From IMG/VR virus record IMGVR_UViG_3300042402_007287: a stretch of 64,000 nt of DNA; one strand, written 5' to 3'. Positions 3,707 to 44,138 of this stretch are shown here, one piece after another. The stretch is from a virus. Lineage: Duplodnaviria; Heunggongvirae; Uroviricota; Caudoviricetes. How positions within the stretch are numbered: the stretch's first letter is position 1; each line of letters opens with the position of its first letter. Under the pieces are notes generated by a model. It had not been told where the DNA came from. It saw only the letters and a program-made list of their open reading frames with translations, and did not search any database. The translations under genes and the position numbers were made by a program.

Positions 3707-4180
3707 AGATTTTAAACCTATTATATTTTTGAAATTAGGGAAAAGATTATCATATATTTGTATGATAGTTTCTTTATAATCAATATTCATAAATTCTCCT
3801 TTGCCAGGTAATGTTAGTTCAGTTTTAACTTGATATGGTTTACAAATATTCTTTAAGGATTTTTCGAATTGAACCGCACCATGTGCTTGTAAAGTTTCTT
3901 GTCTTATAATATCCACAATTTTTATTTCATCTCTACCTGAATATCTTTTTTCTGCGAATCTTCCTTCTACAGAATTCTTTGTATATCCTATTTTTAACAT
4001 TGGGATTTCCCCTATTTGTACATGTATGAGATATACGATATGGGGACCGAAACATGTATCTACTCGATTATAGATATAGTCAATTATCTTGGGATATTGT
4101 TCGATAATTTGTACTAATACATTTATTTTAGTTGAGGTATCCCCCAATTTGGAATTCTGATAACTTTCATACAAGGACAT
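3698..4180 (-). CDS. GIY-YIG / T5orf172-like domain protein
   Basis: HIVYLIHV..G..LKIGYTKNSVEGRFAE fits the GxVY...KIGxT...R pattern of the T5orf172/GIY-YIG superfamily. Confidence 0.4.
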   Translation of the reverse strand: MSLYESYQNSKLGDTSTKINVLVQIIEQYPKIIDYIYNRVDTCFGPHIVYLIHVQIGEIPMLKIGYTKNSVEGRFAEKRYSGRDEIKIVDIIRQETLQAHGAVQFEKSLKNICKPYQVKTELTLPGKGEFMNIDYKETIIQIYDNLFPNFKNIIGLKSPN

Positions 4181-4210
4181 GTTTCAATTATAATAAAATA
4201 TATGATAAAA

Positions 4211-4240
4211 GAAAAAACCCCCACCGTTTGGTGAGGGTTA
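4211..4240 (-). terminator. rho-independent terminator for 4246..5100
   Basis: The aaccctcacc-aaac-ggtggggg stem closes completely only in minus-strand RNA, through a G-U pair. A T-run follows on the minus strand. The hairpin is identical to the one at 8651..8680. Confidence 0.6.
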
Positions 4241-4245
4241 GTAAA

Positions 4246-5100
4246 TCAATCTCTTTGCGTGTATGAGACTAACTGACCGTTTTTGAACTTATAGTAACTC
4301 CCCGACTTTTTTGTTCCATAAATCAAAGTTCTGTTTTCAGTGGTACCCGAAATGGATTCTTCTACATTAGTTGGGTAAGATTCCATTTTCAAATTATTTT
4401 GGAATGACTCTAATAAGGAATCTTGATTAGTTTTCCATAATAGGAACTCTTTCTCTGTCATTCCTATTTGAGGTTCGTCAAGATTTACAACTTCTTTGAA
4501 CTTTTCGACCCCAAACTCATTGAGGTATTTGTCCATAAAACTTATTCTTCTTTTGAATGTTTCTTTGATTACATTCAGTTGAGATATGGGAAATTTGTAT
4601 TTTACTTCATCCCAAGGTCCTTCGAAATTGTCATTTTGATTCATTGGTGCAGCCCATCCAGGAAAAGGACTTTGGGATATTTTTTGAACAAGAGGTTCAA
4701 TCTCACCGATAATTTGTTCTCTTTGTTGGTTTAATTTTTCATTGATGATGGGAAGGTACTTTGATTTGTTATATGAAGCAAAGATGGCAACAATAATTGC
4801 CCATCCACCAAGAATCCACATAATGTTTAGTAGAATAAAAAACAATTTAGCATTGTCTGTGAATTGATGGGAATTTACGTAGGAACTGTAAAGATAAATT
4901 ACGGAAACCCAAATCATAAAAGTCAGTATCTTCTGAATCCAATTTAATTTCACTTCTGAAGGAATTTCCTCAGAAGTAGTTTGGACCATTTGAACTTGAC
5001 TAACTCTTGGACGAGTAATTGCTGTAACGGTGGCTTTAGCCGCCATAAAACCTAAAGCAGAACCGAATCCTCTTACGAATGAACGCGTTAAATTTGACAT
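4246..5100 (-). CDS. membrane protein, at least 2 TM segments
   Basis: Hydrophobic stretches ILTFMIWVSVIYLY and LFFILLNIMWILGGWAIIVAIFA. Confidence 0.5.
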   Translation of the reverse strand: MSNLTRSFVRGFGSALGFMAAKATVTAITRPRVSQVQMVQTTSEEIPSEVKLNWIQKILTFMIWVSVIYLYSSYVNSHQFTDNAKLFFILLNIMWILGGWAIIVAIFASYNKSKYLPIINEKLNQQREQIIGEIEPLVQKISQSPFPGWAAPMNQNDNFEGPWDEVKYKFPISQLNVIKETFKRRISFMDKYLNEFGVEKFKEVVNLDEPQIGMTEKEFLLWKTNQDSLLESFQNNLKMESYPTNVEESISGTTENRTLIYGTKKSGSYYKFKNGQLVSYTQRD

Positions 5101-10370: not shown

Positions 10371-11636
10371 TTAAATAAATATTTCATTGTCCCAACCAAT
10401 AACAACTCCATGCTCATCTAAAACTAAACCTAATTTTTTCGCAAGTTCATCAGCTTCATGGTCGTTTTTCAATTTACCAAATAACGCCTCACCTTCCATA
10501 GGGTCGTCTATCCTTTGTACTTGGAAGAATAGATTAAATTTATTACCATCTTCAGGTTTGTATCTTATTTTGGGTATGTCACTGTCAGAGGAGACAATAA
10601 ACCAACCTTGTTTTGCGGCATAGTCACCAAACTCTTTGTCAAACCAAGTAACAAACTTTGCAATTCTGGCATATGGATAAACTATCTTGGAATCATCATC
10701 ATGAAGTCTCCCGAAATCATCGACTTTCATACTTTCATTCAGATTTTCATCCCATTTTTGAGTACAAGAATTGAACCAAGGTCCCTCAGGAAAATTTTTA
10801 CCTTGTCTTTTCTCTGTTCGATATTCGGCATAGCGTGGTGGTTTACCTTCAGTGTGAGAACTCAAAAGGGGTAAATCAAAATCTCTTATCTCTTTTTGCA
10901 TATCGTCATAGGTCTCGTAATATTTTATCATCTCACATTCATTATCGAGCGTCCAAGAAATCATGAATTTAGTTTTTTCGGGTGTGTTAGGTTCGAAAGG
11001 TTGTTGCATGATGGGCAATACCCCTGATGGAGTTGTGGATATTTTTATTGGTGGAGATTGAAAATTCGGTTGTATTTGGTGTTTTGTTTGTAGAATCGGT
11101 TTTGGCATTGTTGGTTCATAAATTGTACCACAAATGTTCCCCCACCAACTATATTTTTTATGGTCATAGTCATGATATTGACGTTCGCTCGGATTTTGTG
11201 GGTATTTGGAAAAAGTTATCAAGGAAATGAATTCTGTATCTTTTTTAGGGATAGAACTACTTCCATCTGTTGGTATTTTTGTAACCCAAGCTACACACCA
11301 TTTTCTTACAGGTTTAATTATCGCGTCGGGTTTTTCAGATTGCGAAATCAAATAGTCGTCATCCAATAGTTTTTTATCTTTAACTAACTTGTCGTATTGT
11401 TGATGAAGTCTTGCAACCCAATTGTCTTTATAAACCTCACCTCCCACATAAAAATAAAACTTTGAATTTTTAAATTCATTAGATTTTCTTATTGATTCGT
11501 CGGACAGTCTTTTGGCTTTGTTATAAATTTTTAAGGCCTTCTCATATTCTAATTTGTTCGTGAAAGTATATGTTTCTTGTTCAGAAATCAAACCCATCAC
11601 TTCCCGAATTCTTTTTATGTTTTCTGACAATCTCAT
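10371..11636 (-). CDS. hypothetical protein, 421 aa
   Basis: Long ORF with uniform coding character. N-terminus MRLSENIKRIREVMGLISEQE. Confidence 0.5.
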   Translation of the reverse strand: MRLSENIKRIREVMGLISEQETYTFTNKLEYEKALKIYNKAKRLSDESIRKSNEFKNSKFYFYVGGEVYKDNWVARLHQQYDKLVKDKKLLDDDYLISQSEKPDAIIKPVRKWCVAWVTKIPTDGSSSIPKKDTEFISLITFSKYPQNPSERQYHDYDHKKYSWWGNICGTIYEPTMPKPILQTKHQIQPNFQSPPIKISTTPSGVLPIMQQPFEPNTPEKTKFMISWTLDNECEMIKYYETYDDMQKEIRDFDLPLLSSHTEGKPPRYAEYRTEKRQGKNFPEGPWFNSCTQKWDENLNESMKVDDFGRLHDDDSKIVYPYARIAKFVTWFDKEFGDYAAKQGWFIVSSDSDIPKIRYKPEDGNKFNLFFQVQRIDDPMEGEALFGKLKNDHEADELAKKLGLVLDEHGVVIGWDNEIFI

Positions 11637-11926
11637 AACTTATCAACTTCCTTTACAAATTTGATACATTTCTCAGAAACTCTACCTTTTTCATGGTCGG
11701 AAATGGTAAGTTTAACTTTATTGTAATTTACAGTGATATCTGGATGATGATTTTGTTTTTCAGCAATTCTCGCAACACTGTTCACAAATTTCATCGAATC
11801 TTTAAAATCATCAAACGTGAAGGTTTTGGAAAGTTGTTTTTTAGAATTTCCCCACCCCTGAAGGTTCTCAGATTCTTCAAGTATCAGAAATAAATTTCTT
11901 TGAATAGACTGTTGTATTTTATTCAT
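11633..11926 (-). CDS. phhB: pterin-4a-carbinolamine dehydratase (PCD/DCoH)
   Basis: FTFDDFKDSMKFVNSVARIAEKQNHHPDITVNYNKVKLTISDHEKGRVSEKCIKFVKEV matches the PCD signature FKDF..AEK..HHP...NVYNKV..LSTHE..GLSE. Confidence 0.8.
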   Translation of the reverse strand: MNKIQQSIQRNLFLILEESENLQGWGNSKKQLSKTFTFDDFKDSMKFVNSVARIAEKQNHHPDITVNYNKVKLTISDHEKGRVSEKCIKFVKEVDKL

Positions 11927-11944
11927 TATGAATAAATATCTTGT

Positions 11945-12130
11945 CTACTTTGTTTTTGGTGGAGTTTTCCTGAAATTTACAACCCTTTTACCGTTTACCG
12001 TAGGCATACCATATTCATCTACACCAATAGTTTTGACGGTGGTTTTTTTGTTCCTGAACTTTCCTGTGTAAATTACATCCCCAACATTCAGAGGAATGAA
12101 TATACCATTTCTTAAATCTCTATCTTTCAT
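11945..12130 (-). CDS. hypothetical small basic protein
   Basis: 61-aa ORF. Confidence 0.3.
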   Translation of the reverse strand: MKDRDLRNGIFIPLNVGDVIYTGKFRNKKTTVKTIGVDEYGMPTVNGKRVVNFRKTPPKTK

Positions 12131-12437
12131 TTTTAAGAACAGCTTCGATTATACCGATAGAATCTTTTTCTTCTTTGGTTTTAAGGGTTTTAGCCTTTAA
12201 GTAAAGTAAAGTTTTTTCAAGTTCACCTTTTTGTAGGTTTTTTGGGTCAATCTTATTAGGGACAACTTTGGACGTATTTTGTTCGTACAAAACGGGAGCC
12301 ATGTTGATGGTGTTGTTCACAATCGGTGGAATTACATCGAATTTCACCTTGTGGTAAATCATCTCGTAGATTTTTGCAGCAAGATATGGGTCTTTCACAA
12401 TCTTGTTCAAGTAGTAGTATCTCAAATATTTTAGCAT
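12120..12437 (-). CDS. hypothetical protein
   Basis: 105-aa ORF. Confidence 0.4.
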   Translation of the reverse strand: MLKYLRYYYLNKIVKDPYLAAKIYEMIYHKVKFDVIPPIVNNTINMAPVLYEQNTSKVVPNKIDPKNLQKGELEKTLLYLKAKTLKTKEEKDSIGIIEAVLKNER

Positions 12438-12455
12438 ACCACAAAGATAATGATT

Positions 12456-13661
12456 TTATACAAATACTGATGGAATTTCTTTCCAAGAGGTTGTGAACTT
12501 TTGAGACATGAACTCTTGTCTCATTTCCCATTCTTTTTCTACGTTTGCTGGTGGTTGAACTATTTGTATCGAACTTGAAAAGAGTGTCCCCTGTTCTATT
12601 GATTCAGGCATTAGGTCATTGAATATGATTCCACACTTTTTATATTTTTTTCCTGTTTTGAACATCTTCTTCAAATGTGGATAGATTTGAGACCATATCT
12701 CATTTTCATCTCTTGTCTGTTTTTGGAATAGTATTTGTTTACTGGTGTAGTGTTTTTCATCTTTATGTTTATTACCCGCAATGAATATGGTTGCTCTGTT
12801 TGGAGATATTCCATTCTCGTGCAACTTTTTAACACCACTTTTTACGTATGAATACATAGCCTCGGCTATTTGGTCAAACGTATCAATATCTTTTCCAAAT
12901 GACCTTGTTGACGCCACGTTTCTTTTCAATTTTGGAACAGGTTGAACGGGATGGCAATACATTCCAAGTAATTCCATTTTTGTTTTCAACCCATTTACTG
13001 TCATCATCTTTCTCACAAGACCATCGTTCAACATTACGAATTGTCCAACACTATCCACACCAATCATTTTCAACTTCTTATACCATTTTCTCCCGATTCC
13101 CCAAACCTCATCAGCTGATATTGTGTAAAGTAAATTCCTTACATTTTGTAAAGTCCAATAAGAACATACTCCGTTATATGAGTCTTGTTTTTTGGCAATG
13201 TATGAAGTTAGTTTTGCCAATGTTTTATTTGGACCAACACCGATTGAAACAGGAATTCCAACCAATCTTTTCACTTCGTTTTTAATAAGTAAAAGTCTAT
13301 CCATCAATTCATCATCAGGTATGTTTGAGAAGTCAACAAAACATTCATCAATAGAATATACTTCAACTTCGGTAGCATACTTTTTTATTATTGTCATGAC
13401 TCTGTCAGACATATCACCGTAAAGATTATAGTTGGAGGAGTATACACAAAACCTGTGCTCTTCCATGAAATCTTTTTTTAGGAAGAATGGTTCACCCATT
13501 TTAATTCCAAGGTCTTTCGCTTCTTGAGAACGAGCGATAACACAACCATCGTTGTTTGATAACACAACTGTTGGTCGTCCGATTGAAATGGGATTAAAAA
13601 CTCTTTCACAACTAACATAGAAGTTGTTACAATCGACTATCCCTATCTTCTTCTTTTCCAT
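12456..13661 (-). CDS. umuC: Y-family (translesion) DNA polymerase, UmuC-like
   Basis: MEKKKIGIVDCNNFYVSCERVFNP...VVLSNNDGCVIARSQEAKDLGIKMGEPFF closely matches the UmuC N-terminus. Confidence 0.9.
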   Translation of the reverse strand: MEKKKIGIVDCNNFYVSCERVFNPISIGRPTVVLSNNDGCVIARSQEAKDLGIKMGEPFFLKKDFMEEHRFCVYSSNYNLYGDMSDRVMTIIKKYATEVEVYSIDECFVDFSNIPDDELMDRLLLIKNEVKRLVGIPVSIGVGPNKTLAKLTSYIAKKQDSYNGVCSYWTLQNVRNLLYTISADEVWGIGRKWYKKLKMIGVDSVGQFVMLNDGLVRKMMTVNGLKTKMELLGMYCHPVQPVPKLKRNVASTRSFGKDIDTFDQIAEAMYSYVKSGVKKLHENGISPNRATIFIAGNKHKDEKHYTSKQILFQKQTRDENEIWSQIYPHLKKMFKTGKKYKKCGIIFNDLMPESIEQGTLFSSSIQIVQPPANVEKEWEMRQEFMSQKFTTSWKEIPSVFV

Positions 13662-13874
13662 TTAATACAATACAATTATTTCACCAGGATTGTGCGCAGG
13701 AACATCATAATGATAACCGTTTTTTTTTAAAATGTCTACGACGATTTCATTCATCTTTGTTGACCTACCTGTGATGATTTTCACAGGAAAACTTTCATGA
13801 TGAAGGTATAAAAAATTCAAAACTTCGAGTGGTACATCTATGTGAAGTAGTCCATGTAAATCTAATTCTTCCAT
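13662..13874 (-). CDS. Smr-domain protein
   Basis: LDLHGL...VKIITGRS...IVVDILKK matches the Smr pattern DLHG...IIhGkG. Confidence 0.5.
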   Translation of the reverse strand: MEELDLHGLLHIDVPLEVLNFLYLHHESFPVKIITGRSTKMNEIVVDILKKNGYHYDVPAHNPGEIIVLY

Positions 13875-14080
13875 GTTTTATAGTTTGAGATGAACCAATA
13901 CCCATGGACAAAAAGAACTGCAGTATTCACCGCAATTAAAGGATAGTCAGATTTGAGTAACGCATAAATCAACCATAAAATTGCACCCGTTGAGTTAGCA
14001 ATTCTCAATTTTAACATGTCTTTAAAGAAAAAAGATAGTAACACAGCTGAGGTGGCAACCCATCCCAAAATTTCAATCAT
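13862..14080 (-). CDS. small membrane protein with 2 TM segments
   Basis: 72-aa hydrophobic ORF. Confidence 0.4.
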   Translation of the reverse strand: MIEILGWVATSAVLLSFFFKDMLKLRIANSTGAILWLIYALLKSDYPLIAVNTAVLFVHGYWFISNYKTWKN

Positions 14081-14083
14081 AAA

Positions 14084-14401
14084 TTATAGTTTATTTAAAA
14101 TCCAATTTACTCTTCCCCAAACATTTGATTGTCCTTCGTATTTTCTAATCTTAAAACATTCCTTCTCGGTGATAATAACTAAATCTCCTTCGTGTGGCTC
14201 AATAGAACGGTCAATAACGAGGATATTTCCTGTCCTTACTCCAAGTGTGTTTGGACCTTTATATTGAAAATAAAAGGTTGTGTGCACGTCCTGAATGATT
14301 AGGTCATTCAGGTCAAGACGTTTGTCTACATAAGATTCCGCAGGAGATGCAAATCCTGTGGTTCTTGAGCTAATGGATAGTTCTGAACGTAGAGTTGACA
14401 T
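14084..14401 (-). CDS. umuD: UmuD-like protein (peptidase S24 fold); the Ser nucleophile and Cys/Ala-Gly cleavage site appear to be absent
   Basis: GFASPAESYVDKRLDLNDLIIQDVHTTFYF aligns to UmuD [30 protein letters not shown]. The GDSM position reads GPNT. Confidence 0.75.
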   Translation of the reverse strand: MSTLRSELSISSRTTGFASPAESYVDKRLDLNDLIIQDVHTTFYFQYKGPNTLGVRTGNILVIDRSIEPHEGDLVIITEKECFKIRKYEGQSNVWGRVNWILNKL

Positions 14402-14423
14402 ATCTACAAAGATAGTAAAAAAA

Positions 14424-15017
14424 TTATAAACTATTTTTTATTATCTCAGTAATTTCTTTCCAATTTTTTGTGATTGCTTTTTGAGAATCATTATCTGTCA
14501 TAATCAGACTAACATTACCCTTTTTTTGTATAGGTAACATTTTTGAAACTTTTTTTAATTTGTTATTCTTATCGATGAAACCTAAAACCCCTTTACCTTG
14601 GTATTCAGTTATATTATCTATGAATTGATTTTTCTCCCAAGGTAATTTGAAACTTTTATTTTTATAAAAAAACTTTCGTTTGTTTTCAGGGTCGTTGAAA
14701 GTTAAACCTGTTTCCAAATCTTTGGAAATATTCTTTATAGACTCGAACAATTGAGAGTTGTGATTGTCATCATGAATGTGACCCGAACAAGATGGCGTAG
14801 TAGGTATATTATTTCGGTGTAAAAATTCAACCAAAAGTTTCAAATCATCGTCTACGGTATTGTAAAATGATTCGTTGTTCGGAATTGTAAACTCCCTTGG
14901 TGTTTCATAAAAAAAGAACCAAGGACATTTTTTGGTTTTTAACCATAATCCTTTGTGAAAATCTTCGTGAGGAATAAAATCAGGATTCAATTTCATCTGT
15001 GAAATCTTTGATATCAA
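14424..15017 (-). CDS. hypothetical protein
   Basis: 197-aa ORF. Confidence 0.45.
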   Translation of the reverse strand: MISKISQMKLNPDFIPHEDFHKGLWLKTKKCPWFFFYETPREFTIPNNESFYNTVDDDLKLLVEFLHRNNIPTTPSCSGHIHDDNHNSQLFESIKNISKDLETGLTFNDPENKRKFFYKNKSFKLPWEKNQFIDNITEYQGKGVLGFIDKNNKLKKVSKMLPIQKKGNVSLIMTDNDSQKAITKNWKEITEIIKNSL

Positions 15018-15774
15018 AATCTTTTACAAAAGCACCAAAAGCATCTTTGTAGGACTTTTGACTCTCATCATTGACACTTTCTGTATATTGCCAGTTCCAA
15101 TAGAGTTTATTGTTTATATCAAAACCATAAAATCTATGTATCTCTTTTTGTAGTTCTATTACTCCTTCACCGTTGAAATTTTGTCCCACGGAAATCATTC
15201 CGCTTTCAATACCCTTCACAACATTTTTCTCCCCCAAAGTTGTGTGTCTGTTCTGAATCCAAGTGAGTCTTTCAATTAAATTTTGATAAAACATATTTGC
15301 AGAACCCCATCTCACTGAGGAGAAAAATATAACACAATCGGATTCAAATAGTTCTTTAGATATTTTCCAAAGCTCATCATACTTAAAATTTATAGAAGCC
15401 CAACATCTATGGTTACCCGTTGGATTTTTTTTCTTGTCTTTTAGTTCTGCCTTGGCTATCCCACAAGAATTACCCTCTTTTCTTGAAACATTACCCTCAC
15501 AAGGGTGAATTTTCAGTTCAGTTACATCTATGAATTTAGCTTTGTCACCTAATTCTTTGGCAATATACTCTGCCAATATCCTTGATTTGGGAATGTCAAT
15601 TTTGTTCTCGTCCCAATTGTATCTGTTTGAACAACTAAGTAATAAAACTTTTTCTTTTTTTTGTAAGGCTTTAATGGTCTCATCGAGTTTTTCCAACCCG
15701 TGTTTACGAACATTTTCCTCTGAGAGCATTATCTCTCTGATTTTCAGTAATTCTTGTTCTAAAACTAAATTCAT
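14980..15774 (-). CDS. flavodoxin-like fold protein, possibly an NAD(P)H-dependent FMN reductase / iron-sulfur flavoprotein-like
   Basis: VLLLSCSNR...; a compact Cys cluster HPCEG..SCG..HRC; DCVIFFSSVRWGSANMF. N-terminus MNLVLEQELLKIREIMLSEEN. Confidence 0.35.
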   Translation of the reverse strand: MNLVLEQELLKIREIMLSEENVRKHGLEKLDETIKALQKKEKVLLLSCSNRYNWDENKIDIPKSRILAEYIAKELGDKAKFIDVTELKIHPCEGNVSRKEGNSCGIAKAELKDKKKNPTGNHRCWASINFKYDELWKISKELFESDCVIFFSSVRWGSANMFYQNLIERLTWIQNRHTTLGEKNVVKGIESGMISVGQNFNGEGVIELQKEIHRFYGFDINNKLYWNWQYTESVNDESQKSYKDAFGAFVKDFDIKDFTDEIES

Positions 15775-15843
15775 AACTATAAATACTAATGGTTTCAGTA
15801 ATTATCTGAGGTAATGATACTATTTATTATCAAATTATAAGTT

Positions 15844-16212
15844 ATGATACTACAAACTACACTTATCGTCGCCTTCGCCTCAGTAATTCTTTGGGTGGTT
15901 ATTTTTAGTCTGAAAAACAAAAATAAAAAAAGTGAAATTCAGGAACCTATAATCAATGAACCGATTGAACAAGAACTACCAATTGAAATTGATATCCCTG
16001 GTGAAATGCCTGAAAAACCTCTACCTATAAATTGTCAATTAGCACAATTTCAACCAGCCCCTCAAGACTTTTTCTATGTAGATTGTTGCGGAGTTCCCCA
16101 TAAGGGTACAGGTTTTGAACCTTGGGAAAAAAGGTCTCCTGTTTCTATTGATAGTAACAAACCTTTCTTCGGAATGACTTTGTTGGATGTTGAAGCAGAA
16201 ATAAACTGCTGA
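15844..16212 (+). CDS. membrane protein with an N-terminal TM segment and a Pro-rich body
   Basis: LIVAFASVILWVVIFSL. It is the only + strand ORF in the gap between minus-strand genes. Confidence 0.4.
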   Translation: MILQTTLIVAFASVILWVVIFSLKNKNKKSEIQEPIINEPIEQELPIEIDIPGEMPEKPLPINCQLAQFQPAPQDFFYVDCCGVPHKGTGFEPWEKRSPVSIDSNKPFFGMTLLDVEAEINC

Positions 16213-16611
16213 TTATTCCCCGTACATACTAGGTTTAAGACTCGGAAATTTCTTAGCGAATTTCTTTATATGAACACCTGCAATTGTGTTTGCCATGTTC
16301 TCTTCGGGTCCACCTATATCTTTAATAACATCTTTTTCTGATAATCCCATTTTTTGGAATTGATACTCATGTATCCATTCATGTGAAATTGTTCTTAGAA
16401 TATCTATCAGAAGTCTGTTTGATGCTAAGACTATTATTTCATCGTTCTTTCTGACCCCTGTGGTCATTTCACCTTTTCTTTGATTAGATAAAACTATTGT
16501 TATAGGTTTTTCCAATGCCATTTCAGACTGTAGAAACTTCAGAAAAATTTTAATTGTTTCCAAATCATTACTTGGAACGAGATTATCTGTATTTTTGAGT
16601 TTAACTTTCAC
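16213..16611 (-). CDS. HExxH motif protein, putative Zn-metallopeptidase-like; 132 aa
   Basis: ISHEWIHEYQ. Same length and core as 2336..2734. Confidence 0.4.
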   Translation of the reverse strand: MKVKLKNTDNLVPSNDLETIKIFLKFLQSEMALEKPITIVLSNQRKGEMTTGVRKNDEIIVLASNRLLIDILRTISHEWIHEYQFQKMGLSEKDVIKDIGGPEENMANTIAGVHIKKFAKKFPSLKPSMYGE

Positions 16612-16624
16612 CGATAATAAATAT

Positions 16625-16828
16625 TCAAACTATTTCAATCTGATACAATTTAGCAAACTTTTGAATAACATTTGTAAGTCCGTTGGGTAAATTGTCCGAG
16701 GTTATTTTGAAAATTGGGTTACCTTTGAGGTTGTCTACATAAACAAAATCTAATTGATAAAGTTTTTCCATACTCGGGTAATAATGGTATAAACCCTTTT
16801 TGAAATTTTCAAGAATTTGAGAGTTCAT
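16625..16828 (-). CDS. hypothetical small protein
   Basis: 67-aa ORF. Confidence 0.3.
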   Translation of the reverse strand: MNSQILENFKKGLYHYYPSMEKLYQLDFVYVDNLKGNPIFKITSDNLPNGLTNVIQKFAKLYQIEIV

Positions 16829-17927
16829 TTGTTAGTTTTAGAGCTTGAGCAATTACTTGATGCATGTCATAATAAACATAGGATGCTAATCGACCACCAA
16901 ATATATACTTATTCTCCAACTTGGCCAAGTTATTATATTTCTCGAAAATTGAGGTATTTTTTTCATCCCTGATTGGATAGTAAGGTTCGTTGTCCCCATC
17001 ATAATCAGTGGGAAACTCATAACTTATAATTGTTCCCTTTTGATTTTGTGGGTCAAACCACTTATGTTCAAGAATTCTAGTGTATGGAGTTTCTCTATCT
17101 GTATAGTTCACAACAGGTATACCTTGAAAATTATTTATATCCAATCGTGTTGTACTCCACTTCAAACTTCTATATTCAAGTTTTCCGAATTTGTAATCAA
17201 AGAATCTATCTATTGGTCCAGTATAAATTATTTTCTGTGTTTGTTTTTCTAAATTGTGTTGATAATCAAAAAAATCTATACCTAACCTAACCTCTACGCC
17301 CTCTAACATTTTTTCGAATATTTGTGTATATCCGCCGATAGGCATACCTGTATATTTGTCATCAAAGTAATTACTATCCCAACTGAACCTTACAGGTATT
17401 CTTTTGATAATAGAAGGAGGTAAATCTTTACAATCTCTGTTCCACTGTTTTTCTGTATACCCTTTTATAAGTTTTTGATAAATTTCGTTCCCAACCATCG
17501 AAACCGCCTGCTCTTCAAGGTTAGAAATCATACCATTGTACTTTGTTTGTTCCAACTTAGCCTTAGCCAACTCAGGGTCATTGATTTTCCAAAGTTGGTT
17601 AAAGGTCCACATGTTGAATGGGAGTGTATACCTTTCTCCTTTGAAGTCGGCAATTACATTATGAGTGTATTGACGAAACTCAGCAAATTTGTTCACGTAG
17701 TCCCATAACTTTTTGTCGTTTGTATGGAAAATATGGGCACCGTATTTGTGAACGTGAATACCACCGTCATTTTCAGTATAACAATTACCACCTACGGTCC
17801 ATCTCTTGTCGACAACGAGACACTTTTTTCCTTTCTGAGTAAGTTCGTGAGCACAAACACATCCGAAAGGTCCTGCACCGACAATTATATAATCAAAATT
17901 GAGACGGGTCGAATCTAAAACTATCAT
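16809..17927 (-). CDS. glf: UDP-galactopyranose mutase
   Basis: About 60 percent identity by eye to E. coli Glf across the whole length: DYIIVGAGPFGCVCAHEL, HKYGAHIFHTNDK, KGYTEKQW, IIKRIPVRF, YTRILEHK, YYDMHQVIAQAL. Confidence 0.93.
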   Translation of the reverse strand: MIVLDSTRLNFDYIIVGAGPFGCVCAHELTQKGKKCLVVDKRWTVGGNCYTENDGGIHVHKYGAHIFHTNDKKLWDYVNKFAEFRQYTHNVIADFKGERYTLPFNMWTFNQLWKINDPELAKAKLEQTKYNGMISNLEEQAVSMVGNEIYQKLIKGYTEKQWNRDCKDLPPSIIKRIPVRFSWDSNYFDDKYTGMPIGGYTQIFEKMLEGVEVRLGIDFFDYQHNLEKQTQKIIYTGPIDRFFDYKFGKLEYRSLKWSTTRLDINNFQGIPVVNYTDRETPYTRILEHKWFDPQNQKGTIISYEFPTDYDGDNEPYYPIRDEKNTSIFEKYNNLAKLENKYIFGGRLASYVYYDMHQVIAQALKLTNELSNS

Positions 17928-19056
17928 TTGATACGGTTGGAGCGGACAATTTTTGGGTTATTTCGTTTTTCCAATTTACCAAGAAATCACTTGTATCGTA
18001 ATAAGCTCTGGTTTCAATCAAAAATGAAGAACCTGGCCAAGGATTTACTCTGTCTGAAGACAACATATAATCCAAATTTCTCAGTAATTCTTCATTACGA
18101 TTCAAACTTTGAAGTAGGAAATTCAAATATATATAATGTTCGTTTCTCATTGGAGCAAATTGTCCAGCCCAATAATAGTGTTGAATTGCATCTTCTAATT
18201 GACCCAAAAATTGAAGGGCTTGTCCCATCATGATGAATGCGAAGTATGCCATTTCATCAAAACGAGTGGCGGTTTTTTGATTATGCCAATCGTGAACTTG
18301 TTCTAAAAACCTATTGTAATACCAAATACTTCTTCGAGCATACTCTTCGGAGTGAAGTCTTCCAAATGGAAGTTCATCAGGATTACCATAACAATCTGCA
18401 TAACTTTTAGCTATATACCATAAATGATATGGGTCATCTTTAACTTTATTACCAACAACTTTATCAATTTCCAATTCTAAAGCGTCTCTCAGAAATTTAC
18501 GAGGAACATGCCATGTTTCTCCATCTTGGGAAACTAAATGACGAAAACTGAAAGGTAGATTTATTCTTACAAAACTTTCTCCGATTTCAGGTAAATGTAT
18601 TGTTTCGTGACGTTTATCATCCGCAAAAAACCATGGTAACTTAGCATTCCATAACCAAGTTCTGAAATACTTTATATCTGCAGCAGATGCGGGTACATTG
18701 AAGCTATCAATAGTGGTGTCAGAAAGAATATTCCAATCGAAATCTTCATCAATTTGTAATCTTTCGTCCGCATCCATTCTCAAAATCCAATCACAACCAT
18801 GATTTGCTTGAAGGGCTCTTTGGAGTGTATGGTTTCTATTCCAACCTGGATAGTTCCAATCTATCTCATATGTGAATCCAGGAATACCTCTTTCATTAAA
18901 AAATTTCTCGATGATTTCTTTCGTGTTATCCTCTTTTCCATTACATTGGATTACCCAATAAGAAATGTGTGGAGCAACAGATTCTAACATTCTTGTGATG
19001 GTTTTGGCTTCATTGCCTACCATCGCGTTCATACAGATTTTTGGTTTGTTATTCAT
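17893..19056 (-). CDS. glycosyltransferase-like protein with an N-terminal GT-A/GT2-like region
   Basis: ICMNAMVGNE...WILRMDADERL contains a DxD-like motif. Sits directly downstream of glf. Confidence 0.45.
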   Translation of the reverse strand: MNNKPKICMNAMVGNEAKTITRMLESVAPHISYWVIQCNGKEDNTKEIIEKFFNERGIPGFTYEIDWNYPGWNRNHTLQRALQANHGCDWILRMDADERLQIDEDFDWNILSDTTIDSFNVPASAADIKYFRTWLWNAKLPWFFADDKRHETIHLPEIGESFVRINLPFSFRHLVSQDGETWHVPRKFLRDALELEIDKVVGNKVKDDPYHLWYIAKSYADCYGNPDELPFGRLHSEEYARRSIWYYNRFLEQVHDWHNQKTATRFDEMAYFAFIMMGQALQFLGQLEDAIQHYYWAGQFAPMRNEHYIYLNFLLQSLNRNEELLRNLDYMLSSDRVNPWPGSSFLIETRAYYDTSDFLVNWKNEITQKLSAPTVSNDSFRFDPSQF

Positions 19057-20296
19057 AAATGTAATTCATTACTTCTTCTTCTTCGAAATATTTTTTTATT
19101 GCCACGTGATTTTGGAATCTTTGTGATTCTTGTTTTTCTTCATCCCAATTCCAATCTTTGAATCCCAAGGATAAAATTCTTTCGTGGATTGCTTTATCAT
19201 AAAAGTCTCTAATAATTCTTGCTCTTCGATTTATATCTTGAGCATTATTATCAACCGTACTGTTACGATTATTCCATTGCAAATATAGGACACGTTTTAC
19301 GTGAATAAACCGTGTATGTAAAAAACTTCTTATTATAATCTCCAAATCATCCGCAACAGGAGTAAGTTTATTGTGTCCACCTATTTTGTGATATAGGTTT
19401 CTTTCCCACATTCTCACGTGGTCGGGCATGGATATATTGAACCTTATTGATAATGGATTTATATCAGGGTACCAGTGTGCCAAAATTTTTCTACCATCTA
19501 CTTCAACCCAAGTGTGACCAGCATAACCAAAATCAAAAAAATTATCATGTCTTGCATACCAACCACCTGTCCAATCATGGTCATAAGATTTCATCTCACC
19601 ATCCTCATATAATTCACAAACATCCGTATATAAAAATCCTGCATCAGGATATTTGATGATGGCATCATTACAAGTGGATAAACACTCTGTGGTCAAAGTA
19701 TCATCATGGTCCAACTCGACCAACCAATCACCATCACATAACATAGCTGCTCTATGTTTGGCCAAACCTACATTACCACCCGATAACGGGTAAATACGAT
19801 GAATTTTAACCCTGTAGTCTTTCGAAGAAATTTCTTTCAATAGGTTCCATGTTATTTCGTCAGGCGAATCGTCTACTACGACCCATTCCCAATTAGTCCA
19901 AACTTGAGACCTCAGACTCTCATAAGTTCTTTTAATTCTTTCATAAGTCTTATATGCTGGTGTGAAGACCGAAAATCGTGGTCTATGGTATGTAAGGTTT
20001 TTGTAAATAGCTTCCTTACATATCGTGTTAGCCAAATCATAATCACCCAAAGGATTTTCTATGAAAACATAAATTTGTTGTAATTGATAATGAGGTACAT
20101 TCACGTGAGTCCCAATCGAAACAATAATATCAGGTCTATACTTGGAATAATCTTCGGCCACATTATCTGTGTAAGGTAAAGAATAAACCATGATTTCTTC
20201 CCAAAGCCCTTCTTCAGAATAAATTGAAGTTTGTAATAATTCCTCACCCTGTTTGTACCAATTATAAACTATCGCACTCGGTTTTTTTGTCTTCAT
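19049..20296 (-). CDS. family-2 glycosyltransferase
   Basis: FTPAYKTYERIKRTYESLRSQVWTNWEWVVVDDSPDE...DWLVELDHDD shows a GT2 core with a DxD motif. Confidence 0.6.
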   Translation of the reverse strand: MKTKKPSAIVYNWYKQGEELLQTSIYSEEGLWEEIMVYSLPYTDNVAEDYSKYRPDIIVSIGTHVNVPHYQLQQIYVFIENPLGDYDLANTICKEAIYKNLTYHRPRFSVFTPAYKTYERIKRTYESLRSQVWTNWEWVVVDDSPDEITWNLLKEISSKDYRVKIHRIYPLSGGNVGLAKHRAAMLCDGDWLVELDHDDTLTTECLSTCNDAIIKYPDAGFLYTDVCELYEDGEMKSYDHDWTGGWYARHDNFFDFGYAGHTWVEVDGRKILAHWYPDINPLSIRFNISMPDHVRMWERNLYHKIGGHNKLTPVADDLEIIIRSFLHTRFIHVKRVLYLQWNNRNSTVDNNAQDINRRARIIRDFYDKAIHERILSLGFKDWNWDEEKQESQRFQNHVAIKKYFEEEEVMNYIYE

Positions 20297-28150: not shown

Positions 28151-29440
28151 TAGGCGAAAACTCTGAGAATACAAGTCTTGACAAGAGTCTTTAGGAGGAT
28201 TATTTGGTTCCCTCTGTTTCCACTTCCTTTTGAGAAGTAACTCTCAGTCACGGTCAATTAGATTAACCAATCCTGAAGTTGTCTGCAACTCTCCCATTAC
28301 TCATCACTCTTCGACCCTGCCGAGCCAATTCATCCTTGCGGGATTAGAGAACTTTCGTGAAAATCGTGTCGGGCTTGGGACCCTTCACGGCAATGAACAT
28401 CTCATTACTATGTAGTGACCTGTCACACACAACTGACGAGCACTTTTCCTTGATTTAATTAATGTTTTGGACATTGCATAGACCAAAGTTGGTTTACGGA
28501 TTATGAAGGTAGTGGCCCGTCTGAAGCCAAGTCATCTTTTGAACGACCCGATACTAAACTACCCTCTGAAGTGTCCCCACCTCCATACTTCGAGTCAACT
28601 TCATAACAGACCTCTTGGTAGAGCATTTGCTAAGGTTCTATCAGCACCACCTGTAATAAAACTTACCTTTCGGTTTTTAAGTCAACTTTGATATTGAATG
28701 ACGCAATTGTGACAGTGGATACTACCACTTCTTACATCGATTCTACAGGTGATTCTTGTTGGTCTTCCGACCTCAACCAAACGACCCGAATCGCTTGGTC
28801 ACCACACCACGTTCCCTACAGTGTTACCCTCGGTACTAAAGGTGTTGTGATATCCTGCTTGCCTACTCGAGCTCCCTTTTGGAAACCGCGGGAACCACCA
28901 AACCAGGGGTTCCTACTTTATACTACTTTCGTAGTTTATTTAACGACCATAGGCGGCCAATATCTTGAATCAAAGAACTATCAAAGATTGAAGGAAACCG
29001 AAATATCTTTACTCCGAACATTCGGAAACGATTTCCCTCAATTGTCTTACAAAGATAAGAAGTCATTTTCAGACTGTCAAATTTTATAAGAGTTTTTTAT
29101 AAAAAATTTACAGGCTTTTTGTACCCTTTTGTACATCATGACCAACATATTCCTACATTGGTGGTTACATTTTCGTCGTTGGTTAATTACTCCTGACTTA
29201 TAGTAACTATACCCTCCCCGCTCTGATACCGCGAATCAAGACGGCGTCTTTGGGATTCATATACCGTGGGGTTCCACCACAGTCTTCACCTGTATTGTTG
29301 CGACGCCTTGGAATTGAACCAAGTTCAATTGGCTTATGAGACCAATGAGATACCTTACCTCCCGCTCGCCCTATAATAAAACTACTCAAGTCCCCGTGTC
29401 ACCATCCAAGTCATGCTCTGGTTGAACCTTGAGTAGAAAT
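28151..29440 (-). ncRNA. candidate large structured non-coding RNA, about 1.3 kb, GC-elevated and ORF-poor; the strand call rests on the terminator
   Basis: GC is roughly 45-50 percent by eye against about 33 percent around it. Only short, implausible ORFs. Many local hairpins. No recognisable rRNA, RNase P, tmRNA or tRNA signature. Confidence 0.3.
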
Positions 29441-40186: not shown

Positions 40187-41034
40187 ATAAAATAAGAAAT
40201 ATAATCACCAATCTAATATTGGAGGCACAGAGATATAAATTTTCTGATGATGTGAGAGATAGAATGAAATCCGTCACAGAAAAATTATGGTCTGATAGAA
40301 ATAAACCTTATAAAGGAAAAGAACTAGTTGATGTCATTCCTTTTAAATTAGCCGATGGAGTAGAGGGTTTAGCTAGAGTCGTGGTAAACCCAAGACTACC
40401 CTACATGGGTCAGATGGGTACAAAACCTCAAAAGTCAGTCGACCCGGCAGATATTGTAATCGAAGTAAATCCAAAACACTACGAGTCAAAAAAAACACTT
40501 TATCTTACACTATATCATGAAATGATACATGCCAGTGACCCAACACAATCTCATTTGTTTAGTCCCAAATATATGGTGACTTACAATGAGAAATCAGATA
40601 AAGATTATTGGGGTCATCCAATAGAATTTTTTGCAATTTCAAATGAATTTTTGGAGGGTTTGGTTCTCGAATTTGAAAGAAGAGTTAAAAGAAACAGAAA
40701 AATTGAAAACCTACAATTTTTAGAAAAATCATTAAAAAATATAATCAATTATTTTGCCAAGGGTGACCCACTATCTAAACTCTCGAAGGATATTTTATTT
40801 AGAATAAATGATGAACATTTGGGAAATGACCTTATCAGAGTTTTCAAAAATTTAACCACCGATAATCCTCAACTTGCAGATTTTATGTCTGAGAGAGGAG
40901 GAGAAGAACCTTACTACATTTATTATGTTGAATTGATTAAAAAGTATAACCCAGAAATTTGGAAAAAATTTCTGTCGATGTTATACCAAACTGGTTTCGA
41001 AATAAGAGATTTAATTCAAAAGACCGAAATCTAA
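40183..41034 (+). CDS. HExxH motif protein ([13 protein letters not shown]); start set to the ATG at 40183 ([16 protein letters not shown])
   Basis: The track start at 40162 overlaps the upstream gene. ATG 40183 forms an ATGA junction. Confidence 0.45.
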
Positions 41035-44000
41035 ATAAGTCCTCTTTCCTTGGCTATTGTCTCTAACTCATCAAGTTTTATTTCTTTAGATTCCAAAATC
41101 AAGGATTGTTCTTTAATGGCTTCTAAACAAACAGCTATTACTTCAGCATATTTTACCATGAAATATGCGTTCTCGGTGTTTTTCTTGAAAACCAATTCAG
41201 GTAATATATGACCTATTTCTTGGGCAATGAATCCAATATCATGTTTACCTGATTGGGATGTTTCATCATTTAATTTATTCCAATAGAATGAAACACCTCT
41301 CAATTTCAGGACTTTTTCTAGTGGGGATTGTATTTCTTTTACGTCCTTTTTTAATCTTAGGTCAGAACCAGTGGTACCTTGTGCACCTTGAGCACCTTGT
41401 AAACCATTTGGACCGGTTGCACCTTGTGCACCTTGTGGACCTTGACCACCTTGTGGTCCTTGGGCACCTTGACCCCCCTGAGGTCCTTGAGCTCCTGTGG
41501 CACCACCACCGCCTTGAGCACCTTGGCCTCCTTGCGGACCTTGAGCACCTTGAGCACCTTGGGCACCACCACCGCCTTGAGAACCTTGTCCTCCGGCGGT
41601 ACCCTGAGCCCCTGTGGGACCTTGAGAACCTTGTCCACCTATTGGACCTTTGGGACCTTGAGCTCCTTGAGCACCTTGAGCACCTCCAGGTCCTGTTGGA
41701 CCCTGAGCCCCTTGAGCTCCTCCTCCACCTTGGGAACCTTGACCTCCCGTAGGACCTTGAGCCCCTTGAGCACCACCAGGTCCTTGAGCTCCTTGAGCAC
41801 CTTGACCTCCCGTAGGACCTTGAGCCCCTTGAGCACCACCAGGTCCTTGAGCTCCTTGAGCACCTTGACCTCCCGTAGGACCCGTAGGTCCTTTGGGACC
41901 AATAGGACCAGGAACACCAGTTGCACCGTTTGCACCGATATGACCTTGTGGTCCCTGTGCACCTTGTCCTCCCTGAGCACCTTGTGCACCTTGACCCCCT
42001 TTAGGTCCTGTGATACCTGTAGGTCCAGTAGGTCCTTGCGCACCTTGTGCACCTTGACCTCCAGTTGTTCCTTGAAAACCTTGTGAACCGACGGGCCCTT
42101 GAGCACCTTGGGCACCTTGTCCACCACCTCCACCTTGAGCACCTTGTGAACCTGTGGCTCCTTGTGCTCCCTGAGCACCTTGTCCGCCACCAGGACCAGT
42201 TGCACCTTGAGCTCCTTGTGAACCTTGAGCTCCTTGTGCACCCTGTCCTCCTTGTGAACCTTGACTACCAACAGCTCCTTGAGCACCTTGAGCACCTTGA
42301 GCTCCGGCGACGCCCTGAGAACCTTGAGCTCCTGTGGCACCTTGTGCACCTTGGGAACCTTGAGCACCTTGCCCACCTTGTGAACCTTGTGCACCTACGG
42401 GACCTGTCGTTCCTTGTGCTCCTTGTGCACCCTGTCCTCCACCTCCACCTTGAGCACCTTGGGCTCCAACTATACCTTGAGCTCCTTGTGCACCTTGTCC
42501 TCCTCCGGCACCTTGAGAACCTTGGGCTCCTGTGGGTCCTTGAGAACCCTGAGCACCTTGACCTCCTGTAGCTCCTTGAGCTCCTTGGGCACCTGTTGTA
42601 CCTTGAGCCCCTTGGGCACCTTGTCCTCCTTGGGAACCTTGAGCACCTTGGGCTCCTGTTGAACCTTGGGCTCCTTGAGCTCCTGTTCCACCTTGTGAAC
42701 CTTGTGAACCTTGGGCTCCTGTTGAACCTTGAGCACCTTGGGCTCCTGTTCCACCTTGGGAACCTTGGGCTCCTGTTGAACCTTGAGCACCTTGGGCTCC
42801 TTGAGCACCTTGTGGACCTTTAGGACCTTGGGCACCTTGAGCACCTTGTCCTCCCTGAGCTCCTTGAGCTCCTTGACCACCTTGGGACCCTTGCGCACCT
42901 GTTAAACCTTGTGAACCTTGTGCTCCTTGAGCACCCTGTCCACCTTGGGAACCTTGAGCTCCTGTAGGACCGAGAGCCCCTTGTGCTCCTTGAGCACCTT
43001 GCCCACCTTGAGCTCCTTGAGCTCCTGTGAGACCGACAGCCCCTTGAGCTCCTTGAGCCCCTTGTCCACCCTGAGCTCCTTGAGCACCTGTAGGACCAAC
43101 TGCGCCTTGAGCACCTTGAGCACCTTGTCCCCCTTGGGAACCTTGGGCTCCTGTTGTACCTTGGGAACCTTGAGCACCTTGGGCACCTTGTCCACCTTGT
43201 GCCCCTTGAGCACCTGTGAGACCTTTAGCCCCTTGTGAACCTTGAGCGCCCTGTCCACCCTGTGCTCCTTGCGAACCTTGAGCACCTGTTGAACCTTGGG
43301 CTCCTTGGGCTCCTTGACCACCTTGAGAACCTTGAGCTCCTGTGGGTCCCAAAGTTCCTTGTGAACCCTGAGCACCTTGTCCTCCTTGAGCTCCTTGTGA
43401 ACCCTGAGCACCTGTAAAACCTTGTGAGCCTTGTGAACCTTGACCACCTTGTGAACCTTGTGCACCTGTAGGTCCTTGTGACCCTTGAGCACCTTGAGCA
43501 CCTTGTCCCCCTTGAGCACCCTGAGAACCTTGGGCACCTGTTGAACCTTGGGTACCCTGTGCTCCTTGACCCCCTTGAGCTCCTTGAGCACCAGTAGAAC
43601 CTTGTGAACCTTGAGCACCCGTTGGACCTTGAGGTAATTTAGCTCCGACCCATCCTGTTGAATTTATTAAATCTCCCGAGGCATTTGCAAGTTTGTTAGT
43701 AAGTGTTATTGACCCCCCACTGACTCTGAGGTTTGGATAGGAAGTACTTATTCTTGCTAAAGTGGAAGTTAAAGTTCCAAATTTCAACTCACCATTCTCC
43801 ATATACCAGTTAGTGGCAGTTCCTCCAGAATCTATAAGTTGAAAATTGGCTCCATCAGGATAAACAATTATATTTTCATCACCTGAAAATTCAGTACATT
43901 TTCTAACCTCCGTGACAGTTCCTGTCCTATTTATCTTCCAAACCGTTGTATCAACAGAATCCTTTAGATATAAATTAGGTAATAATGGAGAGAAAGTAAT

Positions 44001-44138
44001 AACATTAGTATAACCTGCATCTGTATAGACTACACAACCTCCACTTAGTGATGGACACGGTGTATAAATAGTCTGTGATGCCACAGAATTACACGCATTT
44101 AGATAACTCGTCCCTGAATATACTACGTATGATGCCAT
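41031..44138 (-). CDS. collagen-like (Gly-X-Y) fibre protein, 1035 aa, with a C-terminal intramolecular-chaperone auto-processing (peptidase S74) domain
   Basis: About 730 residues of GAQGSQG-type triplets. The C-terminus [12 protein letters not shown]...FYWN... matches the S74 S|DxRLKxNI cleavage motif of phage tail fibres. Confidence 0.85.
41753..41878. repeat. perfect 63-nt tandem duplication inside collagen-like gene 1
   Basis: The unit encodes a repeated 21-aa [21 protein letters not shown] block. Confidence 0.6.

Follow-up and report, generated by a model that had tools for sequence, protein, structure and literature searches.

Does a UmuD homologue that appears to have lost its self-cleavage apparatus still serve a UmuC-type DNA polymerase, and does that polymerase still answer to RecA? 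The question is raised by a locus in the IMG/VR virus record IMGVR_UViG_3300042402_007287 (Caudoviricetes), of which a stretch of 64,000 nucleotides, hereafter the window, was analysed; in it, a gene for a UmuD-like protein of 105 amino acids (mini-UmuD) is followed, after genes for a small membrane protein and a putative mini-Smr protein, by a gene for a UmuC-type Y-family DNA polymerase. DNA polymerase V (Pol V) is the textbook enzyme of SOS mutagenesis, with three RecA-dependent controls: cleavage of LexA, cleavage of UmuD, and transfer of a RecA monomer. A preliminary description of the window had taken mini-UmuD for a pre-activated UmuD' that would license translesion synthesis without RecA-mediated cleavage. 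The analysis leans, with rather more confidence than doubt, toward a streamlined two-subunit Pol V-like translesion polymerase, non-cleavable and probably RecA-independent, of a large and apparently virulent phage.

The homology of mini-UmuD to UmuD is far beyond chance. In a phmmer search of the PDB, the 105-residue protein matches UmuD' (1umu, E 1.8e-10) and UmuD (8gmt, E 1.9e-10); it also matches PHROG 811 ('UmuD-like', E 4e-19), and the profile of its family aligns to Escherichia coli UmuD with a probability of 98% and E 2.8e-14 (hhalign). Its score with the Pfam S24 model PF00717 is 20.3 bits against a gathering threshold of 23.3, and its score with NCBIfam NF007621 is 65.1 against a cut-off of 110. 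An AlphaFold2 model predicts a disordered N-terminal arm (residues 1-33, predicted local distance difference test score, pLDDT, <50) and a core of five strands forming a beta-barrel (residues 34-105, pLDDT 83-89), for which the best structural matches found by Foldseek are UmuD' (1ay9, 1umu, 8gmt), then LexA and lambda CI. The LexA/UmuD C-terminal domain fold is present in the model, shortened by one beta-hairpin: about 24 C-terminal residues, which form the hairpin at 100-125 of E. coli UmuD, are absent from mini-UmuD, where the last strand comes almost at once. Among 5.8 billion proteins searched, 347 relatives were found, and 96 of the 120 homologues listed are exactly 105 amino acids long. 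A longer N-terminus from an upstream start codon was considered and rejected, as 105 amino acids is the longest possible open reading frame (orf) for this gene and the homologues share the length, so that the short N-terminus does not stem from a misplaced start codon.

The preliminary description had remarked on some 15 residues ahead of the GF(P/A)SP motif, on the want of a Cys/Ala-Gly cleavage site and on a catalytic GDSM that reads GPNT, and all three remarks are borne out by profile alignment, as is the homology to UmuD that it had claimed. Exactly 15 residues precede G16-F17-A18-S19-P20 of mini-UmuD, and T15-G16 takes the place of C24-G25 of UmuD. The nucleophile Ser60 of UmuD has become Asn51, within G49-P50-N51-T52, and the general base Lys97 has become Arg86. 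Conservation at the leader and at both dyad positions was counted in 144 distinct family sequences. Immediately ahead of the Gly, 137 of them have Thr and seven have Ser, and none has Ala or Cys; the position equivalent to Ser60 holds Asp (54 sequences), Asn (51), Ser (13), Lys (12), Glu (8), Thr (4) or Ala (2); and the position equivalent to Lys97 holds Arg in 137 and Lys in two. T14, G16, F17, S19, P20 and A21 are invariant, E22 is found in 143 sequences, and an alignment of the family contains 37 invariant positions, with TTGFASPAE invariant in it. Residues 1-7 of the leader are variable and L8, I10, T14 and T15 are invariant or nearly so, which makes the last eight or so residues its conserved portion.

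An offset Ser-Lys dyad was considered and rejected, the sole invariant Ser (S19) being located in the GFASPA arm. Lys84, which is present in 139 of the 144 sequences two residues upstream of R86, was likewise rejected as a displaced dyad residue; it aligns to T95 of UmuD and has no accompanying conserved nucleophile. The acidic residues D91 and E93 of UmuD contact the RecA groove during cleavage (PMC9926225), and their equivalents in mini-UmuD are K80 and C82, position 82 being C, H, Y or F across the family. Loss of the cleavage site and of both dyad residues makes RecA-stimulated self-cleavage of mini-UmuD very unlikely, so far as can be judged from its sequence. Pairwise ratios of nonsynonymous to synonymous substitution rates (dN/dS) between mini-UmuD and its relatives are 0.10-0.22, with synonymous sites at or near saturation, and mini-UmuD is therefore still a working protein. 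Strong purifying selection on the protein, with free drift at the nucleophile position, is the signature of a pseudo-enzyme that retains a non-catalytic role.

The partner polymerase had been called canonical, and in its catalytic residues, its clamp motif and its C-terminal tail it is. The window UmuC matches Pfam IMS (E 1.5e-33), IMS_C (E 3.7e-13) and DUF4113 as well as PHROG 1268 (E 3e-110), and shares 32% identity with E. coli UmuC along its full length (BLASTP, E 3e-75). Its catalytic residues D10 and D105/E106 align to D6 and D101/E102 of E. coli UmuC, the steric-gate residues F14-Y15 are present, and the UmuCs of the family preserve both the catalytic carboxylates and the steric gate; almost all of them also have the QxxLF pattern of the beta-clamp-binding motif. 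The tail pattern ...TTSW.EIP.VFV is conserved as well; the role of this tail in E. coli is the binding of UmuD' (PMC6511836, PMC11791011).

Where the polymerase departs from the canonical form is between the clamp motif and the tail, a stretch of 16 residues in the window UmuC versus 38 in E. coli UmuC. The missing part is RecA-NT, the motif by which UmuC binds the RecA monomer in the active mutasome, as modelled (PMC6511836, PMC11791011, PMC12926913); it consists of a helix and a strand at about residues 371-395 of E. coli UmuC, and about 25 residues are gone. In an alignment of 42 distinct UmuCs, comprising 26 of the family, that of E. coli and 15 others, the stretch is about 16 residues long in all 26 members of the family and about 35-45 residues long in E. 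coli UmuC and the 15 others, with a ..LM..MD.lN.r.G.gtl.. helix-strand. As a control, the Pfam model DUF4113 was found to be matched at positions 1-51 by E. coli UmuC (residues 371-421) and at positions 2-50 by two other canonical UmuCs, but only at positions 26-51 by the window UmuC. The 16-residue spacing is repeated at two more distant loci (L079 and L081), and two divergent mini-UmuD lineages that came from an exhaustive search of representatives (P0125, 108 amino acids, and P0124, 105 amino acids) adjoin short UmuCs with this spacing (397 and 390 amino acids, respectively). On these alignments, the RecA-NT motif is lost from the window UmuC and from every relative examined. The UmuC residues that crosslink to RecA (R367, S370 and Q372; PMC11791011) lie within or beside the segment that is missing here. 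With the loss of RecA-NT, the idea of RecA independence becomes stronger and broader than it was in the preliminary description.

An AlphaFold model of Pol V suggests what mini-UmuD may still do. In that model, one UmuD' arm enters the gap between the palm and the little finger of UmuC and brings its conserved tip close to the active site. The UmuD' sheet gains a strand formed by the final residues of UmuC, and the C-terminal carboxylate of UmuC contacts S36, T71 and K73 of UmuD', while the side chain of K422 pairs with E69 (PMC11791011). These positions are deduced to be S60, T95, K97 and E93 of UmuD, because only an offset of 24 makes them Ser, Thr, Lys and Glu. Their equivalents in the phage family are a variable polar residue, a near-invariant Lys, a near-invariant Arg, and C, H, Y or F, respectively. 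Docking of the carboxylate at S60/T95/K97 fits the near-invariant K84 and R86, and the pairing of K422 with E93 is in keeping with the change to a hydrophobic VFV end opposite C/H/Y/F at position 82. By analogy with the model, the old protease pocket with K84 and R86 may be a carboxylate-binding site for the C-terminus of UmuC. The pattern of the pocket and the invariance of the arm motif argue that mini-UmuD still binds and configures UmuC and is made ready-formed.

Mini-UmuD would thus be a descendant of UmuD pared down to two UmuC-binding parts, a flexible TTGFASPAE arm and a small beta-barrel whose former protease pocket, with Lys84/Arg86 for Thr95/Lys97, would clamp the ...VFV-COOH end of UmuC. 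Since it lacks the nucleophile, the general base and the Ala/Cys-Gly bond, it would be made in its final form and so would need no cleavage stimulated by RecA-star. The phage UmuC, which keeps its active site, clamp motif and UmuD'-binding tail and is without the RecA-tethering segment, would form with it a complex that is active on translation and uses the clamp rather than RecA or an SOS timer, and the phage might thereby replicate DNA damaged by ultraviolet light (UV) or otherwise; the membrane protein and Smr genes would be unrelated cargo that landed in the umuD-umuC junction.

Several points weigh against this mechanism. E. coli Pol V has next to no activity unless RecA-ATP is present (PMC6511836). 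When E. coli UmuD is non-cleavable and keeps leader residues, mutagenesis by UV is greatly reduced (UmuD8 S60A) or low (UmuD18) (PMC5342242), and by E. coli rules mini-UmuD would look 'uncleaved' rather than 'activated'. The conserved leader residues L8, I10, T14 and T15 may make contact with the cleft of UmuC, or may be a degron or a pseudo-substrate. A conserved h-x-h-h-x-x-P stretch (IQIVQPP and similar) persists in the linker of the family UmuCs and could be a residual or alternative partner-binding strand, and it is possible that a phage RecA or UvsX, encoded beyond the 64 kb inspected, binds in another way. Finally, full-length UmuDs without the dyad exist whose UmuC partners are RecA-NT-positive, so loss of cleavage alone does not imply RecA independence. 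What stands of the pre-activated UmuD' first proposed is that self-cleavage is very unlikely; what does not is the likeness to a processed protein, as the conserved part of the 15-residue leader stays in place, unlike in HumD of phage P1. The term 'constitutively active' is not a reading of the sequence and can be used only conditionally, because the E. coli non-cleavable variants with leader residues support little mutagenesis.

The alternative that survives best, unlikely as it is, also holds that the accessory subunit needs no cleavage, but has host RecA, or a UvsX or RecA of the phage, activate the polymerase through a non-canonical interface. It would accord with the RecA-ATP requirement of E. 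coli Pol V (PMC6511836), with the presence of RecA-NT in most bacterial Y-family groups (PMC12926913), with the short hydrophobic stretch that persists in the linker, with the pairing of dyad-less full-length UmuDs and RecA-NT-positive UmuCs, and with the inspection having covered 64 kb of the phage genome only. The deletion, however, removes the entire RecA-NT helix and most of the strand in every member of the family, together with or right beside the RecA-crosslinking positions, and the acidic RecA-groove patch of UmuD is gone too; that one lineage has lost two separate RecA-related features speaks for release from RecA.

It is quite improbable that the complex acts, like E. coli UmuD2C, as a checkpoint or as a brake on replication, which would bind the clamp or the replicase and hold back or stop host replication during infection. 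Mini-UmuD does retain a leader that is not cleavable, the clamp motif of its partner is conserved, and non-cleavable E. coli UmuD, poor in mutagenesis, sensitises cells at high copy (PMC5342242), yet the catalytic carboxylates and the steric gate of UmuC are conserved family-wide when pure blocking of the clamp needs neither, and residues 1-18 of the UmuD arm, with their links to the clamp, the alpha subunit and ClpXP, are largely absent from mini-UmuD or not alignable to it.

There is only a slim chance that leader residues 1-15 are cut off by another protease, or in trans by an S24 protein of the host, to give a UmuD'-like N-terminus at G16. Invariance does extend over Gly16 and the surroundings of the former site, one UmuD molecule cleaves another in the RecA filament (PMC9926225), and the range of leader lengths among dyad-less UmuDs (4-25 residues) would be tolerable if the leader were discarded. 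Nevertheless, the residue before the Gly is Thr, or in a few relatives Ser, but never Ala or Cys, the residues that contact the RecA groove are not conserved, and trans-cleavage requires heterodimers with a host UmuD, which many hosts lack; moreover, several dyad-less relatives (L060, L062) have only M-x-K-T-T before the Gly, which suggests that TTG belongs to the mature N-terminus. A functionless remnant beside a UmuC that works alone like DinB, to which the missing catalytic residues, the absence of about 24 residues from the C-terminus and the S24 score below threshold might point, is effectively refuted by the dN/dS analysis and further opposed by the 37 invariant positions, the nearly uniform length of the homologues, the conserved synteny with UmuC and the conserved UmuC tail that binds UmuD' in E. 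coli.

A non-cleavable, probably RecA-free polymerase of this phage could be an instance of something wider, namely the evolution, in a clade of large and apparently virulent phages of the environment, of a minimal Pol V that dispenses with SOS induction, UmuD cleavage and RecA, a proposal that is tentative and possible rather than probable; in it the S24 pocket would have gone from Ser/Thr/Lys to x/Lys/Arg and would now clamp the carboxylate at the C-terminus of UmuC. The hairpin of UmuD and the RecA-NT motif of UmuC were apparently lost together, which, if the proposal is true, would suggest that both form the RecA-dependent half of the canonical mutasome, and RecA would not be intrinsically required for UmuC-type polymerases. 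There is no experimental structure of any bacterial multisubunit Y-family complex (PMC12926913), and a natural complex of about 105 + 105 + 401 residues would be a smaller target for the missing structure of the Pol V type. A variant that has shed two RecA-dependent features could also separate the parts of UmuD' and UmuC that serve polymerase function from those that serve regulation only, and it points to a way in which lytic phages of sunlit waters might copy damaged genomes with no need to wait for the SOS response of the host. As for annotation, the automatic labels 'S24 family peptidase' and 'autoproteolytic subunit' are borne by many proteins that cannot be proteases.

The gene pair is consistently linked: of about 60 related loci, nearly all have umuD just upstream of umuC, and in the window nothing lies between the two but a pair of cargo orfs that overlap or abut. 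When IMG/VR was scanned with sequence patterns, 62 distinct loci matched; about 44 of these belong to the mini-UmuD family, and several are on contigs of 270-321 kb. When one genome per species was scanned for 185,579 bacterial and archaeal species, the result was a single 7.6-kb contig of a metagenome-assembled genome (MAG), and no close structural relative of mini-UmuD was found in BFVD. With mostly viral contigs of up to 321 kb, one MAG contig and nothing in BFVD, the family thus seems restricted to phages that are large and probably non-temperate.

On two IMG/VR phage contigs (L046 and L047, both at 3998-4309), the mini-UmuD gene has no umuC within 4 kb downstream, where there are instead orfs that resemble, by the look of their sequences, a metallophosphatase, a P-loop kinase and thymidylate synthase; mini-UmuD may be an orphan there, like HumD of P1, or umuC may be elsewhere in the genome. 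Contigs with a family member of 102 amino acids (L008-L011) encode a protein with type IX secretion system (T9SS) Por_Secre_tail and Ig_7 domains upstream of the mini-UmuD gene, and one of them (L010) encodes a TonB-dependent receptor of 942 amino acids. The T9SS Por_Secre_tail and the TonB-dependent receptor are hallmarks of Bacteroidota, and homologue P0098 is labelled as from a Flavobacteriaceae MAG; the phages of these contigs may have a Bacteroidota host, or the contigs may be chimeric or mis-binned.

In the window, the four co-directional orfs of the block look like one transcription unit within a long array of minus-strand genes (Table 1). Three nucleotides separate umuD from the membrane protein gene, which overlaps the Smr gene by 13 nucleotides, and umuC abuts the Smr stop codon. 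A scan of positions 11500-16500 for promoters and terminators found nothing above shuffled expectation, and within the same region there is no room upstream of umuD for a separate SOS-box promoter.

Table 1. Coordinates of the umuD-umuC block, of sites within its genes and of other features of the window.
Feature	Positions	Strand	Basis or remark
UmuC-type Y-family DNA polymerase gene, 401 amino acids	12456-13661	minus	orf list
UmuC C-terminal tail WEMRQEFMSQKFTTSWKEIPSVFV, the UmuD'-binding tail of UmuC, ending VFV-COOH	12459-12530	minus	DUF4113 positions 26-51
UmuC linker of 16 residues, SSSIQIVQPPANVEKE, site of RecA-NT deletion	12531-12578	minus	alignment of 42 UmuCs
UmuC beta-clamp-binding motif Q357-G-T-L-F361	12579-12593	minus	aligned to E. 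coli UmuC 357-QLNLF-361
Putative mini-Smr gene, 70 amino acids	13662-13874	minus	orf list
Small membrane protein gene, 72 amino acids	13862-14080	minus	orf list
UmuD-like (mini-UmuD) gene, 105 amino acids	14084-14401	minus	orf list
Mini-UmuD K84-I85-R86, aligned to UmuD T95-V96-K97	14144-14152	minus	phmmer, hhalign
Mini-UmuD G49-P50-N51-T52, aligned to UmuD G58-D59-S60-M61	14246-14257	minus	phmmer, hhalign
Mini-UmuD T14-E22 TTGFASPAE, equivalent to UmuD cleavage site and UmuD' arm tip (QCGFPSPAA)	14336-14362	minus	alignment
Mini-UmuD leader of 15 residues, MSTLRSELSISSRTT, ahead of GFASPA arm motif	14357-14401	minus	E. coli UmuD has 24 residues there
Orf with N-terminal peptide ..NIKRIREVMGLISEQ..	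10371-11636	minus	
Pterin-4a-carbinolamine dehydratase homologue	11633-11926	minus	
Orf with N-terminal peptide ..ELLKIREIMLSEEN..	14980-15774	minus	
UDP-galactopyranose mutase-like gene and two family-2 glycosyltransferase genes	16809-20296	minus	about 2.4 kb upstream of the UmuD-like gene
GOLLD RNA, full-length	28160-28566	minus	RF02032, 314.7 bits, E 3e-89, model positions 1-416
tRNA match	29299-29369	minus	Rfam, 33 bits
Collagen-repeat orf, first of three in tandem	41031-44138	minus	
Collagen-repeat orf, second of three	44138-47122	minus	
Collagen-repeat orf, third of three	47122-50283	minus	
DnaJ gene	56583-57500	minus	J domain, zinc-finger and C-terminal domains

Two genes, for a small membrane protein and an Smr-domain protein, had been described as inserted between umuD and umuC, and the orf list confirms that they are there. 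The 72-amino-acid protein reaches 23.9 bits with Pfam Imp-YgjV, for which the cut-off is 23.5, and E 5e-6 with NCBIfam SemiSWEET_2, under the cut-off of that model; judging by these matches, it resembles small membrane proteins such as YgjV, a PQ-loop protein or half a SemiSWEET. No homologue of its gene was found in 60-plus related loci. The 70-amino-acid protein by itself matches Pfam Smr (PF01713) weakly (E 0.046, 14.3 bits versus a cut-off of 25.7), and the Smr assignment rests on its family, as all six homologues match the model (best E 8.7e-8) and the LDLHG and ITG.S motifs are invariant; the family profile has no significant match in the PDB.

The two genes are not part of the umuD-umuC module. 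In most relatives umuD and umuC are adjacent, and the homologue of the Smr gene is 1.3-3.9 kb from umuD and never between umuD and umuC. As parts of a functional module they were rejected, being absent from the junction in relatives, while other lineages have unrelated inserts there; the junction is a hot spot for cargo, and the Smr and membrane protein genes are lineage-specific cargo outside the mechanism. Inserts in other lineages, their identities assigned from the look of the sequences, are a flavodoxin-like orf with a hotdog thioesterase-like orf, a thioesterase-like orf alone, a 41-amino-acid transmembrane peptide, and an orf of 133 amino acids; the loci with junction inserts are L015 (4320-5266), L025 (4315-4695), L001 (6325-6450) and L078 (1086-1487).

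The window as a whole is AT-rich (about 33% GC) and encodes two DNA methylases and glycosyltransferases besides fibre proteins, DnaJ and a GOLLD RNA; by this gene content it is therefore part of a large phage genome. A nucleotide search of 50,697 phage records found no close relative, the sole match being 169 bp at 70% identity, and at the protein level matches to cultured phages are at most 39% identical, with no close cultured relative. The tRNA match, about 750 nucleotides from the GOLLD RNA, was not called by ARAGORN. Each of the three tandem orfs, about 1000 amino acids long, combines long stretches of collagen triple-helix repeats with an intramolecular chaperone domain (Peptidase_S74) at the C-terminus. 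The three are probably tail fibres; they lift the local GC content from about 32% to 48-58%. The cluster of a mutase-like gene and two glycosyltransferase genes is kept at the equivalent place in a related contig (L005, 1-2808), from whose equivalent gene the GLF family label of the mutase-like gene was taken. The dnaJ gene is complete. Two otherwise unrelated orfs on either side of the umuD-umuC block share a similar N-terminal peptide, of which a loose motif scan of the window found no third copy.

The phage system resembles E. coli Pol V in having the same two gene families in the order umuD then umuC, in the UmuD' fold with its GF(P/A)SPA arm motif and its disordered arm (here predicted), and in the catalytic residues, QxxLF clamp motif and C-terminal tail of the polymerase. 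It differs in that mini-UmuD is without a Cys/Ala-Gly site and a Ser-Lys dyad, in a leader of 15 rather than 24 residues that would not be removable by self-cleavage, in the absence of the hairpin of about 24 residues from mini-UmuD and of RecA-NT from UmuC, and in the end of UmuC, which is ...RVK-COOH in E. coli and a hydrophobic ...VFV-COOH in the phage family. From mature UmuD', which has a free N-terminus at Gly25, mini-UmuD is set apart by the 15 residues before its Gly.

HumD of phage P1 was reportedly presented by McLenigan et al. in 1999 as a naturally pre-processed UmuD' homologue. As a phage-encoded homologue of UmuD that needs no RecA-mediated cleavage, it is a precedent for the idea in the preliminary description, but HumD starts with M-GFPSPA, keeps the Ser and the Lys (ADSHH ... 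RIKRY), has a full-length C-terminal domain in a protein of 129 amino acids, and is an orphan that works with host UmuC. Mini-UmuD scores 50.5 bits against the HumD family model NF051876, the cut-off of which is 120.

Closer to mini-UmuD in signature are full-length proteins (125-131 amino acids) with RTTGFASPA and without the Ser and Lys, which adjoin umuC on plasmids of Acetobacter, Acidiphilium and Roseomonas, where they are annotated only as 'S24 family peptidase'. Such proteins were found at loci L059-L076, on plasmids NZ_CP014688.1, NC_015187.1 and others and on prophage-like IMG/VR contigs. They share with mini-UmuD the TTGFASPA signature, the loss of Ser and Lys, a short leader and an adjacent umuC, but keep the C-terminal hairpin, have UmuC partners that keep RecA-NT, and are located in bacteria and on plasmids, not on contigs of large phages. 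In a survey of the best 150 representatives at 50% identity, less those of at least 200 amino acids and 13 that were not alignable, a sample biased to the query profile and aligned automatically, both dyad residues are lacking in 45 of 59 proteins with Thr/Ser-Gly and kept in 35 of 53 with Ala/Cys-Gly. From these comparisons, loss of self-cleavage is older and broader than the phage clade, which appears in addition to have lost the hairpin and RecA-NT together.

No description of natural dyad-less UmuD homologues, or of UmuD-linked UmuCs without RecA-NT, was found in full-text searches of the literature; a 2026 survey of bacterial polymerases, which did not cover phages, reports only four small Y-family groups wholly without RecA-NT, none of which is the UmuC group (PMC12926913). 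Small subunits of Y-family polymerases that are not proteases are, however, represented in Bacillus by YqjX with YqjW and by YolD with UvrX, the latter pair being that of prophage SPbeta. YqjX and YolD are of a distinct family (PF08863) not detectably homologous to UmuD, the YqjW and UvrX polymerases keep RecA-NT, and YqjX is predicted to be monomeric, but the likeness to mini-UmuD is one of architecture, an N-terminal arm and a small SH3-like beta-barrel, without protease activity, encoded beside a UmuC-like polymerase (PMC6511836, PMC12926913).

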